Below are positions 5,866 through 35,288 of a stretch of 38,085 bases of DNA, piece after piece. Both the position numbers and the translations under genes were made by a program. This DNA comes from a virus. Position 1 is the stretch's first letter. The number at the start of each line of letters is the position of its first letter. A model generated the notes under the pieces. The model was not told the DNA's origin and did no database searches. It worked only from the letters and a program-made list of their open reading frames with translations. Location of the stretch: UHGV virus genome UHGV-0010575; one strand, 5' to 3'.

Positions 5866-5982
5866 ATTAATTCCTCTCAAATAAGAAAATAAAGGCCACC
5901 ATCAGGCAGCCTTGTTGTTCTGTTTACCAAGTTCTCTGGCAATCATTGCCGTAGTTCGTATTGTCCACACCATTGATTTGTA

Positions 5983-6069: not shown

Positions 6070-6127
6070 ATATCACCTCAAATAAGTGGTTTGCTGCCTA
6101 ATTTCATTTTCTGGCGACCAACACAAG

Positions 6128-6400
6128 TCACCTCGCCGTCAGTTGTTTTGATTTCCGGTAGCCTGCCGCGTAAATGGCTACGTTTGGAAGACAAGTTGAA
6201 CCTTCATATTTTCTGGTCAACGTTGTCAGAGTTATAACTTCTGCTCTCATTGCTGGTTTGCGCTTGCATTGCAAGACCACTCGTGAAGGGGTTGGCCTGT
6301 GTAGCTTGTCGGAGCTAATCGACTCCTGACTTTGCAGGTTTGCGCGACGAGCTCTACGACGAGAAGCTGCGGTGCCTTTAAATTCTGTTTTTCTGGACAT
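6128..6400 (-). CDS. N: N-like transcription antiterminator (P22 gp24-like)
   Basis: Arg-rich N-terminal motif (GTAASRRRARRANLQ) and C-terminal ...VAIYAAGYRKSKQLTAR recalled as P22 gene 24 product; start at internal ATG 6400 with GGGAGG SD; flanked by a nut-like site. Confidence 0.6.
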   Translation of the reverse strand: MSRKTEFKGTAASRRRARRANLQSQESISSDKLHRPTPSRVVLQCKRKPAMRAEVITLTTLTRKYEGSTCLPNVAIYAAGYRKSKQLTAR

Positions 6401-6498
6401 AGATTCCTCCCGAATAAACTTTGGCGATGCAATCTCGAAGCTCCTCCTGAGACGGTTGCTTCGGCATTGCATCCCACAGCTCATGTGGTTGGGTGATC

Positions 6499-6546
6499 TG
6501 GCTTTTCAGCCACGTAGTCGAGTGTTCGACGTTGTTTAAAGAGCCT
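6499..6546 (-). promoter_or_regulatory. nutL-like site (boxA GGCTCTTTA, spacer, boxB hairpin UGGCU-GAAA-AGCCA)
   Basis: Read directly on the minus strand; near-identical architecture to the nutR candidate at 8935-8980. Confidence 0.5.
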
Positions 6547-6550
6547 GCCA

Positions 6551-6796
6551 GTCTGTTCCGTTTGGCTTCCAGCGTCCTGCTGACGGTTAAATAGTACGAT
6601 ATGTACTTTATTGGGTCAATACGATTTGTTCTAAAATGGGGTGATTTTTTATAACACTTTGTATTTAATAGTGTTGTTTTTTAGCGTGGGTGTATCGCCT
6701 CGGCGATGTAAGGAGAGATCAGAATTGCGTGGTTTAGTGAGTTGTATCTATTTATTTTTCAATAAATACATTTGGTTATGTGTCTTTAGGTGGGGC
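6551..6796 (-). promoter_or_regulatory. Candidate pL/OL region (AT-rich, inverted repeat AACACT-N11-AGTGTT at about 6652-6675)
   Basis: Position between cI operon terminator and nutL/N; shares TGTATTT motif with the OR region; exact operators and promoter not resolved. Confidence 0.3.
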
Positions 6797-6800
6797 GTGA

Positions 6801-6830
6801 GGCAAAGAAAACCCGGCGCTGAGGCCGGGT
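6801..6830 (-). terminator. Rho-independent terminator of the cI operon (stem CCCGGC/GCCGGG)
   Basis: Hairpin 6812-6829 followed on the minus strand by UUUUCUUUG; immediately downstream of the 206-aa gene. Confidence 0.6.
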
Positions 6831-6837
6831 TAATGCG

Positions 6838-7458
6838 TTAATGCTGGGGAGTGATTTTTTTGTTGTCTGTTGGCTGGGTATTTTGTGGCGGCGCTTGCAA
6901 AGTGGAAGGCTGTTGCAAAGGTGCGTGGTCTGACTTTAAAGCTGATACCAGCCCGGGAATCGCAACTATTACAGCGATAATGACACTAAAAATGGCTAAT
7001 CGTATAGAAATACCCGACTGAACACCACTAATTGCGGTATTAACCCCTGTTATTTGTCCTTGAATTCCTTCGAATCTCCCATTAATTGCTTTTATATCGC
7101 CAGCAGCGCTATCCATCTTTCCATCGATCTTGGACGATAGAGAGTTTATGGCTGCATTAAGTGATGCAAATTGGACATTAACGCTTTCACGAGATAGAGC
7201 CATGTCAGCCATAATGGAAGAAGCAATAGACTCCATCTCTGCTTTATTAGCAGCTAAGCGAGCATCAAGTTCCTCTCTGCTGATCGTTCCCACTTCTTCC
7301 TCCGTTTGTGGCGGTTTTATGTAATTATTTTGCACCTTGGTGGGAGAATTATCAAATTCAGCCTCAAAATAGGAACCGCCAACAACCTTCAACCTCCGGC
7401 TTTCAGATATGTTGGTGTCTTGCTTTCCATGATTATTTAAATTGCTGTCGTCACTCAT
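6838..7458 (-). CDS. Unrecognised protein (206 aa): coiled-coil region, single C-terminal transmembrane helix, Pro/Gln-rich tail
   Basis: ORF in track; hydrophobic segment IRLAIFSVIIAVIVAIPGLVSAL; ATGA overlap with upstream ORF; no family recognised. Confidence 0.55.
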   Translation of the reverse strand: MSDDSNLNNHGKQDTNISESRRLKVVGGSYFEAEFDNSPTKVQNNYIKPPQTEEEVGTISREELDARLAANKAEMESIASSIMADMALSRESVNVQFASLNAAINSLSSKIDGKMDSAAGDIKAINGRFEGIQGQITGVNTAISGVQSGISIRLAIFSVIIAVIVAIPGLVSALKSDHAPLQQPSTLQAPPQNTQPTDNKKITPQH

Positions 7459-7889
7459 AATAGCTCTACGGTGAAAAATGATTCATTTTTATGAAGTTCA
7501 TTTTTAGGGTCTTCATTATCCTGCAATATCCCTATAACACTATACAGCCCTTTAGCTGGGACCCTAATTTCTTTCAATGTTACTATTACCTGTCCGCCAA
7601 CCCCTGTTTCAAAATGGCTATCTTTCGTATCGATGAAAAGTGAAACTGATTCCGAAGAGCCGTCAGGGAATTGAATTTCCTCACCTTTTTTTATAATTAG
7701 GTGCGCGGGGATTACCATAATACCCAAATTATATCTTGAATTTGGTTTCAACCCGATCATACCAACCCTGAAATCAATTGATAGCCGCGCAGGAAATTCA
7801 TTGCATGTAAAATTAAGCGTCGGTTGGTTGGGTTCTTCGCTGCTATCAAATGGGGTTATAAAAGATATTCTTTCTAAATTAAGTGCCAT
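7455..7889 (-). CDS. Unrecognised protein (about 144 aa)
   Basis: ORF in track (7455..7943); start at ATG 7889 with AGGAG 6 nt upstream; AT-rich coding sequence. Confidence 0.5.
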   Translation of the reverse strand: MALNLERISFITPFDSSEEPNQPTLNFTCNEFPARLSIDFRVGMIGLKPNSRYNLGIMVIPAHLIIKKGEEIQFPDGSSESVSLFIDTKDSHFETGVGGQVIVTLKEIRVPAKGLYSVIGILQDNEDPKNELHKNESFFTVELL

Positions 7890-7939
7890 AAATTCTCCTG
7901 CATCGCTGTATGCTCTACGAGCATCTCGGCGACTTATCA

Positions 7940-8593
7940 TCACCCAAACGTCTCTTCAGGCCACTGACTAGCGATAACTTTCCCCACAACGGAACAACTC
8001 TCATTGCATGGGATCATTGGGTATTGTGGGTTTAGTGGCTGTAGAAACACCTGACCGCTATCCCTGATCAGTTTCTTGAAGGTAAATTCATCACCACCAA
8101 GTCTGGCTATGCAGAAATCGCCGGGCTCAACAGCTTGCTCTGGGTCAACCAGAATTAACATCCCGTCAGGAAAACTAGGTTTGGAACCTGTTGGGGCGGT
8201 CATTGAGTTACCTTCAACCTCAAGCCAGAATGCAGAGTCACTGGCTTTTTTGGTTGTGCTTACCAATCTCTCCGCATCGCCTTTGGTAAAGGTTCTGAGT
8301 TCTGGAGAGAACATCCCAGCCTGAACATGAGAAAAAACAGGGTACTCATATTGTTTTTTAACTGGGGCCGATGAGTATTCGCCAACAGGTGAAAATGTCC
8401 CGTCGTGGTTGAATGATATGTTATCAATACCAAGGTATTTAAACACCACACCAATATCACTAAGAGATGGATGACGAGATCCGCGCAACCAGTGTCCAAT
8501 CCCACCCTGCGTCATACCTAGCTCTTCGGCTAACTTCTCTTGAGTTATGCCGAGCTCTTTCATTCTGGATCTAGCCAGTTCATACCATTTCAT
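7940..8593 (-). CDS. cI: CI-type prophage repressor (HTH_XRE N-domain, LexA/S24-like C-domain)
   Basis: N-terminal HTH ([20 protein letters not shown]), AGMF and GNSM motifs of autocleaving repressors; divergent from the cro-like gene. Confidence 0.85.
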
Positions 8594-8708
8594 TTTCATG
8601 TCCTTATTATTACGCTCTGTATTGCAACCATCCATGCACAATGTGTATTTTTACTTGCATTCAAAAAGTACATATTGTATTTTTCTTCATGGTTACTATG
8701 GAGGGCAT
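8594..8708. promoter_or_regulatory. Divergent cI/cro control region (candidate OR, PRM, PR)
   Basis: 115-bp intergenic region between divergent cI and cro; contains short inverted repeats (CACA-A-TGTG, TACA-N3-TGTA, TTGCAA); operators not assigned. Confidence 0.5.
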
Positions 8709-8924
8709 ATGAGCAACCTACGAAAATATCGAGAGTCACTGAATATCTCTCAAACAACACTTGCTAAGGCAGTTGGATGCACACAGGGAGCTATCGGACA
8801 TTGGGAATCTGGTCGTCGCTTCCCAGACCTTAAAACATGCCGTGCTCTTGTTGCGTGTCTAAACAAGTTAGGCGCAAAAGTCAGTCTTGATGACGTGTTC
8901 CCGCCGGAACACAAAGCCGCTTAA
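8709..8924 (+). CDS. cro: Cro-like HTH repressor (71 aa)
   Basis: XRE-type HTH (ISQTTLAKAVGCTQGAIGHWESG); GGAGGG SD; first gene of the rightward operon. Confidence 0.7.
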   Translation: MSNLRKYRESLNISQTTLAKAVGCTQGAIGHWESGRRFPDLKTCRALVACLNKLGAKVSLDDVFPPEHKAA

Positions 8925-8934
8925 TAAGCGGATC

Positions 8935-8980
8935 CGCTCTTTGTAACAACGGACATTCGTCCTACGTCGCTGAAAAGCGA
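8935..8980 (+). promoter_or_regulatory. nutR-like site (boxA CGCTCTTTG, spacer, boxB hairpin UCGCU-GAAA-AGCGA)
   Basis: Read directly; aligns almost base for base with the nutL candidate, including the spacer. Confidence 0.5.
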
Positions 8981-9065
8981 GTTCCAAGATATCTGACCAA
9001 CTAAGGCCATATGCGTTTCCACGCATACCTTTCAACTAACTATTCACTATTGGAAATCTTAAGAA

Positions 9066-9362
9066 ATGGAAAGAACAAGTTACAGCAAACTATCACAGCG
9101 TGACGTTGATCGCGCAGAAACAGATTTACTTATCAATCTGTCAGCTATTACCCAGCGCGGTCTGGCAAAGATGATTGGCTGTCATGAATCGAAGATAAGC
9201 AGAACGGACTGGAGATTTATTGCTTCGGTCTTGTGTGCTTTCGGAATGGCATCAGACATCAGTCCGATTAGCAGGGCTTTTAAGTATGCGCTTGATGAAA
9301 TCACAAAGAAAAAATCCCCGGCCGCCACCGAGGATTTTAAGCAAATTGATATGCAATTCTGA
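9066..9362 (+). CDS. cII: CII-like transcriptional activator
   Basis: C-terminus KKKSPAATEDFKQIDMQF closely resembles lambda CII ...KKRPAATERSEQIQMEF (recall). Confidence 0.7.
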   Translation: MERTSYSKLSQRDVDRAETDLLINLSAITQRGLAKMIGCHESKISRTDWRFIASVLCAFGMASDISPISRAFKYALDEITKKKSPAATEDFKQIDMQF

Positions 9363-9394
9363 GGGAATTACTGGATCAATCCACAGGAGTAATT

Positions 9395-9559
9395 ATGACA
9401 AAACGTCGTAAGAAATACCAGGAAAAAGAAGAGATTCGACACCCTGATTCACCTGAGGGATTAGTGGTAGCCGCAGCAAATAACAGGGCGTTCGCAGAGC
9501 GCCTTGTTGGTGTTTACAGACTAGCCAAAGCAGGAGTGAAACATGGGCGTCGTTAAGTT
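9395..9559 (+). CDS. Small basic hypothetical protein (54 aa)
   Basis: Hand-translated; AGGAG SD 5 nt upstream; overlaps O start by 17 nt. Confidence 0.35.
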
Positions 9560-15090: not shown

Positions 15091-15165
15091 GGGTCAGTCG
15101 TATAAAGGTCATTACGGAAGGCTGTTAACCTTCTTATCGTGGTTCGAGTCCACGCTGTCCCGCCA
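15091..15165 (+). tRNA. tRNA-Asn-like (anticodon GTT), 75 nt, one T·T mismatch in acceptor stem and 3-bp D stem
   Basis: Hand-folded cloverleaf: anticodon loop CTGTTAA, T-arm CGTGG-TTCGAGT-CCACG, discriminator G, CCA encoded. Confidence 0.55.
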
Positions 15166-15170
15166 AACAT

Positions 15171-15246
15171 GCTGGTTTAGCTCCAATGGTAGAGCGGTCG
15201 CCTTGTAAGCGAATGGGTAGCGGTTCAAGTCCGTTAACCAGCACCA
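15171..15246 (+). tRNA. tRNA-Thr (anticodon TGT), 76 nt
   Basis: Hand-folded cloverleaf: acceptor GCTGGTT/AACCAGC, D-arm GCTC-CAATGGTA-GAGC, anticodon loop CTTGTAA, T-loop TTCAAGT, discriminator A, CCA encoded. Confidence 0.7.
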
Positions 15247-35026: not shown

Positions 35027-35226
35027 GTAAAGAATGTTGTTTCTGCGGCATTAGCGAATCAGACACTGATCAAACATACATTTACTCTAAAGAAACAGGT
35101 CGGATGCTGTGTAGTGACTGCGTGTTGGACATCATAAGATACAAGCATCTTGGATGTTCTGCCAGCATTAGCAATATAGGTGAAGTATACGAAGGGAAAG
35201 ATATAACTGATAGAGCAGAAAGTTGA
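35023..35226 (+). CDS. Small Cys-rich (zinc-ribbon-like) protein (67 aa)
   Basis: ATGA overlap with arc stop; CxxC...CxxC pattern (CCFCG ... CSDC). Confidence 0.4.
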
Positions 35227-35288
35227 AGCCCCAACTGCGGGAACAGTCAGGGCTTCGGTATCAACAAAACTTACGAGGTATTATTGAT

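Follow-up and report, generated by a model that had tools for sequence, protein, structure and literature searches.

The region from 6100 to 9400 of the virus genome UHGV-0010575, a 38,085-nt stretch of DNA that was analyzed at its full length and is referred to here as the window, is a lambdoid immunity region in which the genes for an N-type antitermination protein, a cI-type repressor, Cro, and CII are accompanied by two copies, one on each strand, of a nut-like element (table 1). An earlier note on this DNA, made from the letters alone, had claimed these paired elements as nutL and nutR, each with a boxB hairpin consisting of a 5-bp stem and a GAAA loop. The pair was confirmed from the sequence and by pattern search, the boxB structure was borne out at both sites, and the identification as nutL and nutR is supported by position, by boxA, by the adjacent N gene with its arginine-rich motif (ARM), and by homology to nutR of phage H-19B. 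Judged from their sequences, both elements are very probably functional nut sites of the H-19B type. The best explanation of the locus as a whole, which we consider likely, is that it carries nutL and nutR of a P22-like, lambdoid prophage whose nut sites follow the H-19B/933W plan, with a tetraloop boxB paired with a variant ARM.

Both sites have the same order of elements, namely boxA, ACAAC, a small hairpin, TACG, and boxB. The nutL sequence reads GGCTCTTTAAACAAC-GTCGAacacTCGAC-TACG-TGGCT GAAA AGCCA and that of nutR reads CGCTCTTTGTAACAAC-GGACattcGTCC-TACG-TCGCT GAAA AGCGA; boxA is near the consensus CGCTCTT(T)A at both sites. The claim that the two sites align nearly base for base holds for the flanks ACAAC(G) and TACG(T), which are common to both, but not for the central 12–14 nt, which differ (GTCGAACACTCGAC in nutL vs. 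GGACATTCGTCC in nutR) and form two different hairpins; the presence of a hairpin at the spacer center of both sites had been overlooked. The pattern GCTCTTT-N2-4-ACAACG-N10-14-TACGTNGCTGAAAAGC has exactly two matches in the window, at 6501–6544 (−) and 8936–8978 (+), and none in 100 shuffles, and a looser boxB pattern (TACGTSGCTGAAAAGCS, at most two mismatches) matched only nutL and nutR in the window, with 0.01 matches expected. Rfam contains no nut or boxB family, and its matches in the window are a sar RNA and two tRNAs only. The hairpins might instead be terminators, RNase III sites, or operator-related palindromes that merely resemble nut, and a terminator scan does flag the nutL spacer palindrome on the + strand (6517–6530). 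However, neither boxB is followed by a T-run, the motif occurs once per early operon and nowhere else in the window, and nut sites are indicated by the positions, by boxA, by the adjacent ARM-bearing N gene, and by the homology to nutR of H-19B, a site footprinted by experiment; this explanation is therefore highly improbable.

Folded without boxA, each site forms two adjacent hairpins, with an energy of −12.8 kcal/mol (z −3.3) for nutL and −11.9 kcal/mol (z −2.2) for nutR. The distance from the boxA core to boxB is 25 nt in nutL and 24 nt in nutR; with the spacer hairpin taken out it is 11 nt and 12 nt, respectively, which equals the spacing in P22. To compare this architecture among relatives, 106 unique nut sequences were collected from approximately 350 related loci, the only criteria being the flanks ACAA(C/T)G and TACG together with a hairpin resembling boxB. 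As MAFFT misplaced both the spacer hairpins and the loop indel when aligning nut sites, the sequences were instead parsed by script in structural register. In all 106 sequences TACG is directly preceded by a spacer hairpin with a stem of 4 bp or more, and positions 2–4 of this hairpin (three of the four registered positions) show three to six pair types and are 100% canonical. The arm pairs include GGAC/GTCC, GGGC/GCCC, GTCGA/TCGAC, GATTC(A/G)/(T)GAATC, and GATTC/GAGTC; in nutR of relatives the variants GGGC/GCCC (compensatory) and GGGC/GTCC (with a G-U pair) are found, and in nutL of relatives the spacer loop is ACAC, CTC, ACTC, ATC, or GCAC with the stem kept. The loops of the spacer hairpin vary freely, which marks it as an element of structure and not as a site bound for its sequence; a role as the N-binding element was rejected, as loop and stem sequences both vary without constraint. 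The boxB stems covary as well (TGGCT/AGCCA, TCGCT/AGCGA, CGGCT/AGCCG, AGGCT/AGCCT, and GCGCT/AGCGC), and the outer boxB pair, which lies outside the selection criteria, comprises four Watson–Crick types and is 100% canonical. The site nutL is kept in approximately 80 IMG/VR loci, its boxB in relatives having the stems CGGCT/AGCCG and AGGCT/AGCCT and one GCAA loop variant.

The same layout was also observed in another genus, in a Pantoea septica prophage (L007, 4840–4905) with boxA GCTCTTTGTAACAAC, the spacer hairpin GAGC-GGGAA-GCTC, TACGG, and the boxB GGTGC-C GAGAA C-GCACC. As in P22 nutR, a C-C mismatch flanks the loop, here GAGAA. This prophage encodes an N protein with a further distinct ARM, GKDNAKSRRNARRAEEAIKARE.

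The 90-aa N protein of the window matches the Pfam model N_peptide (PF25694, E 1.6e-31) and the N-like PHROG 271, and its ARM contains SRRRARRA. The mechanically defined open reading frame (ORF) spans 6128–6484, and the annotation of N in phage 1717 likewise uses an upstream ATG (114–118 aa); the ATG at 6400 is indicated as the true start by conservation with N of the 933W type and by the GGAGG ribosome-binding site in front of it. In an ungapped alignment of ARMs, positions 3, 11, and 15 are K, R, and I in P22, R, K, and L in the N proteins associated with pentaloops (H-19B and SPN9CC), and A, A, and S or N in those associated with tetraloops (the window, which has S at position 15, and Salmonella phage g341c). 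In the P22 N-boxB complex the looped-out C of GACAA lies in contact with His7, Arg11, and an isoleucine, and a further contact joins Lys3 to G6/A7 (PMC12550061, PMC11480772). In the ungapped alignment, the tetraloop type would have lost, along with the extruded base, the residues that could hold it.

The type of loop was found to track the type of ARM. The window N, with the ARM ..GTAASRRRARRANLQ.., is accompanied by GAAA at both nutL and nutR; Shigella phage 75/02 (N of 90 aa, ..RRRAHRAELQ..) has GCAA and GAAA, respectively; Salmonella g341c and MG40 (120 aa, ..GSAAGRRRERRAALQN..) have GAAA at both sites; 933W-like phages and H-19B (127 aa, ..GNSRSRRRERLKAKALANG) have GACAA at both sites; and SPN9CC (127 aa, ..GTSRARRRERLKAKALANG) has C-GTCAA-C and GACAA. 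Among approximately 170 loci anchored on N, the tetraloop-type ARM always occurs with G(A/C)AA at both nut sites, with zero exceptions, and the ARM ..RRRERLKAKALANG always occurs with G(A/T)CAA. In a second, independent sample of IMG/VR loci collected by exact nutR sequence (n = 146), all 64 loci with a tetraloop nutR have both a tetraloop-type ARM and a tetraloop nutL, and all 82 loci with a pentaloop nutR have a pentaloop-type ARM (four of them with single-residue variants). GACAA was never seen with a tetraloop-type ARM in either sample. When 183 distinct nutR contexts were clustered, both loop types turned up within six of the clusters formed by cro 3′-ends and four of those formed by downstream sequence; the immunity module therefore does not dictate the type of loop.

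The N proteins of g341c and SPN9CC allow the two types to be compared closely, as they are identical at 84 of 87 positions outside the ARM and at 20 of 40 within it. In the DNA of these two phages (L088/L089, 4836–5156), the 47 nt upstream of boxB are identical, approximately 20 nt at the nutL boxB then differ, the next 113 nt (leader and first N codons) differ at one base, and the ARM codons that follow differ again. The two nutR sites, in the same cro context, differ only in the boxB loop, in the base pair that closes it, and in a few bases that follow. A mosaic this fine suggests either selection or gene conversion acting patch by patch. The proposal in the earlier note that the elements represent a distinct N/boxB specificity class is accordingly narrowed: co-occurrence and the divergence confined to boxB and the ARM give good support to a sub-class within the H-19B-type family, and the difference in specificity is what we infer from them. 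That the tetraloop and its matching ARM have co-evolved into a sub-class of recognition whose specificity is altered is, on these sequence comparisons, the reading that we somewhat favor.

Several points weigh against it or against the structure on which it builds. The minimum-energy fold of the full-length sites (6495–6550 (−) and 8931–8986 (+)) pairs boxA with boxB, and boxB is not formed; the boxA stretch GGCUCUUU is then paired with GAAAAGCC, which comprises the loop and the 3′ arm of boxB (−14.9 kcal/mol for nutL). As a conserved structure, this long-range pairing was rejected because it is impossible in relatives without boxA (g341c-type nutL) and because the boxA variants AGCT and TGCT break its fourth pair. 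Aligned with MAFFT, the ARMs acquire a 2-residue gap, and the residue-by-residue argument thus depends on which alignment is chosen. ARM peptides tolerate some loop variation, as in lambda and P22, and cross-recognition between GAAA and GACAA is therefore possible. The support for altered specificity is also correlational throughout. N lies only about 100 nt from nutL, and because the loci in the sample are related, independent switches between types are few, perhaps three to six. By the corresponding alternative, these are ordinary nut sites of the H-19B class in which loss of the loop C and the ARM differences are neutral drift that has been co-inherited, and either N would work on either loop. 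In its favor, the nutR hairpin is that of H-19B except for the deletion of one loop base, N and nutL are tightly linked, the sampled loci are closely related, and the GNRA tetraloop and the GNRA-like pentaloop have a common core fold (PMC12550061). Drift is, however, difficult to reconcile with zero discordant loci among the 146 nutR-anchored and approximately 170 N-anchored loci, though nutR lies 2.5–4 kb from N and the intervening immunity region is mosaic, its cro and cII alleles occurring with both loop types; nor would drift be expected to confine the divergence between g341c and SPN9CC to boxB and the ARM codons. We consider it unlikely.

In the best explanation given above, the transcripts from pL and pR would carry boxA as the probable site for NusB/NusE, the single-stranded flanks ACAAC and UACG around the spacer hairpin, and then boxB. 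The spacer hairpin would fold away 12–14 nt, giving an effective boxA–boxB distance of 11–12 nt as in P22; the N-terminal arginine-rich helix of the 90-aa N would bind the boxB loop; N would recruit NusA to the spacer while its conserved C-terminus engages RNA polymerase; and the modified polymerase would read through tR1 and the downstream terminators. The boxB of the window is a true GNRA tetraloop (GAAA) without the extruded base of the lambda, P22, and H-19B pentaloops, and its partner ARM, ..RRR(A/E)(R/H)RA.LQ.., lacks, if aligned ungapped, the P22-like residues that contact this base. More tentatively, the GNRA-tetraloop boxB with an ARM of the form ..RRR(A/E)RRA.LQ.. might constitute a fourth natural mode of N-boxB recognition, after those of lambda, P22/H-19B, and phi21, that is orthogonal to the GACAA/H-19B pair. 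In that case N would read a tetraloop without an extruded base, any role of that base in N-NusA assembly would be dispensable or replaced, and a switch of mode would need a one-base indel at nutR together with small patches at the nutL boxB and in the ARM codons.

The positions of the features agree with the layout of a lambdoid early region. The site nutL is located approximately 40 nt downstream of the pL candidate and approximately 100 nt upstream of the start codon of N, and nutR begins 11 nt after the stop codon of cro; the operator-like sequence AAAGTACATAT at the pL candidate is found again at pR. The terminator-like hairpin downstream of N is likely an early target of N antitermination. 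The nearest public records are Shiga toxin (Stx)-converting phages 1717, YYZ-2008, and 2851, an Stx1-converting phage, and Escherichia phage E212, with about 96% identity over about two thirds of the region.

Table 1. Coordinates of the nut sites and of the features surrounding them in the window.
Feature	Position	Strand	Description and basis
nutL	6499..6546	−	boxA GGCTCTTTA (6545–6537), ACAAC, spacer hairpin, TACG, boxB
nutL spacer hairpin	6517..6530	−	GTCGA-ACAC-TCGAC; minimum-energy fold
nutL boxB	6499..6512	−	stem TGGCT/AGCCA, loop GAAA (6507–6504); sequence and fold
nutR	8935..8980	+	boxA CGCTCTTTG (8935–8943), TAACAAC, spacer hairpin, TACG, boxB
nutR spacer hairpin	8951..8962	+	GGAC-ATTC-GTCC; fold; identical to the H-19B nutR spacer
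nutR boxB	8967..8980	+	stem TCGCT/AGCGA, loop GAAA (8972–8975); sequence and fold; H-19B stem identical
N gene (90 aa)	6128..6400	−	start MSRKTEFKGTAASRRRARRANLQ (ARM), C-terminus CLPNVAIYAAGYRKSKQLTAR
cI-type repressor gene	7940–8596		HTH_3 and Peptidase_S24 domains
cro	8709–8924	+	HTH_3
cII	9066–9362	+	Phage_CII, E 4.9e-31
pL candidate	6591..6619	−	TTGACC, 17 nt, TACTAT; promoter scan; putative
pR candidate	8655..8683	+	TTGCAT, 17 nt, TATTTT; read by analogy with pL, below promoter-scan thresholds; putative
tR1-like region	8981..9060	+	between nutR and cII; near-identity to the stretch that follows nutR in H-19B; putative, by homology
Intrinsic-terminator-like hairpin	5892..5913	−	downstream of N; terminator scan; role putative

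Further features of the window were observed in and around this region. Two ORFs of unknown function between cI and pL, at 6838–7458 and 7455–7943 (−), encode proteins of 206 and 162 aa; they occupy the position of rexA/rexB in lambda and are followed by a strong intrinsic terminator at 6831–6810. Both match only the unknown-function PHROGs 5820 and 5893 and have no match in PADLOC, and they may be exclusion or defense cargo expressed in the lysogen. A strong terminator-like hairpin at 9311–9338 (−), antisense within cII, resembles the terminator of OOP RNA in lambda and P22. A sar antisense RNA is encoded at 35221–35287 (−) (Rfam RF00262, 69.7 bits), which indicates an immI (ant) region of the P22 type and, thus, that the window comes from a P22-like phage. 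Adjacent genes for tRNA-Asn (GTT) and tRNA-Thr (TGT) are located at 15091–15246 (+).

The segment comprising N and nutL is present at a coverage of at least 80% in 759 of 5,426 complete Escherichia coli genomes, and relatives of it are found at 355 IMG/VR loci and in dozens of sequenced Stx phages; a scan of genome contigs identified only four loci. Two contigs labeled "MAG: Segatella copri" were seen to carry an enterobacterial lambdoid N, one (L004, JAJXBQ010000280.1) matching the window N at 98% identity and the other (L005, JAJXBQ010000254.1) matching only the conserved C-terminal 24 residues, at 96%; both are probably misbinned. In the searchable literature, which left subscription journals outside the search, no description was found of a natural tetraloop boxB or of this pairing of ARM and loop. 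We conclude that neither the nut sites as such nor the length of their spacer is unusual in this group of phages, that the tetraloop (GAAA/GCAA), together with the ARM that matches it, is a natural variant with good support, and that a distinct specificity is plausible. The N-boxB complex is a textbook model of RNA recognition by an arginine-rich peptide, and boxB tags are widely used for tethering; an abundant tetraloop class with its own ARM would, therefore, add a compact and possibly orthogonal peptide–RNA pair. It would also offer a natural experiment on the rewiring of specificity, as the differences are limited to two short patches and a one-base indel. Because N antitermination feeds into late-gene and toxin expression and this type of N is found in many Stx and other E. 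coli prophages, cross-activation among co-resident prophages is a practical question.

Among the closest known systems is the N-nut system of H-19B/933W (Neely and Friedman 1998, 2000; work of the Sen laboratory on H-19B nutR/tR1). Although the earlier note took the long spacer as the mark of a distinct class, it corresponds to the already known spacer-hairpin layout of these phages. We rebuilt H-19B nutR from published antisense oligonucleotides, which were reverse-complemented and joined, and the resulting sequence (CATAAGTAACACCGCTATTTTCACAATGGACATTCGTCCTACGTCGCTGACAAAGCGAGTCCCAATATATCTGACCAACTAAGG) is identical to nutR of a 933W-like phage (L002). The order boxA, ACAA(C/T), spacer hairpin, TACG, and boxB is common to the window and H-19B/933W; the window nutR has the spacer hairpin GGACATTCGTCC, the TACG, and the boxB stem TCGCT/AGCGA of H-19B; the tR1 region downstream of nutR is identical or nearly so; and the N proteins are homologous, with 40% identity and the same C-terminus. 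Differences are found in the boxB loop, which is GACAA in H-19B but GAAA at both sites of the window; in the nutR boxA (CGCTATTTTC in H-19B vs. CGCTCTTTG); and in N, which is 127 aa long in H-19B, its ARM being ..RRRERLKAKALANG as opposed to ..RRRARRANLQ.. in the window. Two hairpins have been reported for the well-studied H-19B nutR, in which N together with NusA shields the spacer and boxB against RNases H and T1; in the nutR/tR1 terminator of the Sen laboratory, tR1 is Rho-dependent and its rut site is taken to overlap nutR (PMC3526286). NusA also binds the nut spacer of lambda (PMC2724277). The 933W-type nutL has no recognizable boxA, whereas both nut sites of the window have a consensus boxA (GCTCTTT). 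Neely and Friedman are said to have found in 2000 that the requirement for host factors is reduced in H-19B, with NusB, S10, and boxA being dispensable; disruption of the spacer dyad reportedly inactivates the site and compensatory changes or deletion reportedly restore it, the stem-loop being named a "reducer" that shortens the effective spacer. The 11–12 nt that we measured after removal of the hairpin are consistent with this idea. Given a consensus boxA at both sites, the host-factor requirement of the window phage may differ from that of H-19B.

The nut sites of lambda and P22 were read from annotated records as controls, and these confirm that both phages have 5-nt boxB loops and a shorter boxA–boxB spacing, as had been stated. 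In P22 the GACAA loops follow the 8-nt boxA core after 11–12 nt, a distance shared with the effective single-stranded distance in the window, and P22 further resembles the window in the GNRA-type fold of its boxB loop, in a homologous ARM (GNAKTRRHERRRKLAIE vs. GTAASRRRARRANLQSQ), and in a common C-terminus of N. In contrast to the 4-nt loop of the window, however, P22 has a GACAA pentaloop with an extruded C and no spacer hairpin, and its Lys3, Arg11, and Ile15 correspond to A, A, and S in the window if the ARMs are aligned ungapped. Lambda has GAAGA/GAAAA pentaloops 8–9 nt after the 8-nt boxA core; it shares with the window the succession of boxA, spacer, and boxB downstream of pL and after cro, as well as a purine-rich loop of the GNRA type, but its spacer lacks a hairpin. 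Trp18 of lambda N stacks on the boxB loop, whereas the window ARM has no tryptophan. Neither the features of P22-type recognition (GACAA with the third base extruded) nor those of the lambda type (GAAGA/GAAAA with the fourth base extruded and a short unstructured spacer) are thus found in the window. The comparison with P22-like phages carrying a similar N, which had been put forward as a check, places Salmonella g341c, epsilon34, and MG40 in the same tetraloop class as the window. These phages have the nutL boxB CGGCT GAAA AGCCG, the nutR boxB TCGCT GAAA AGCGA, and the ARM ..RRRERRAALQN.., and the g341c record already annotates a putative NutR. They differ from the window in that their nutL spacer hairpin is GATTCA/TGAATC, a consensus boxA is found at neither nut site, and their N is 120 aa long with the central region of the 933W-type N.

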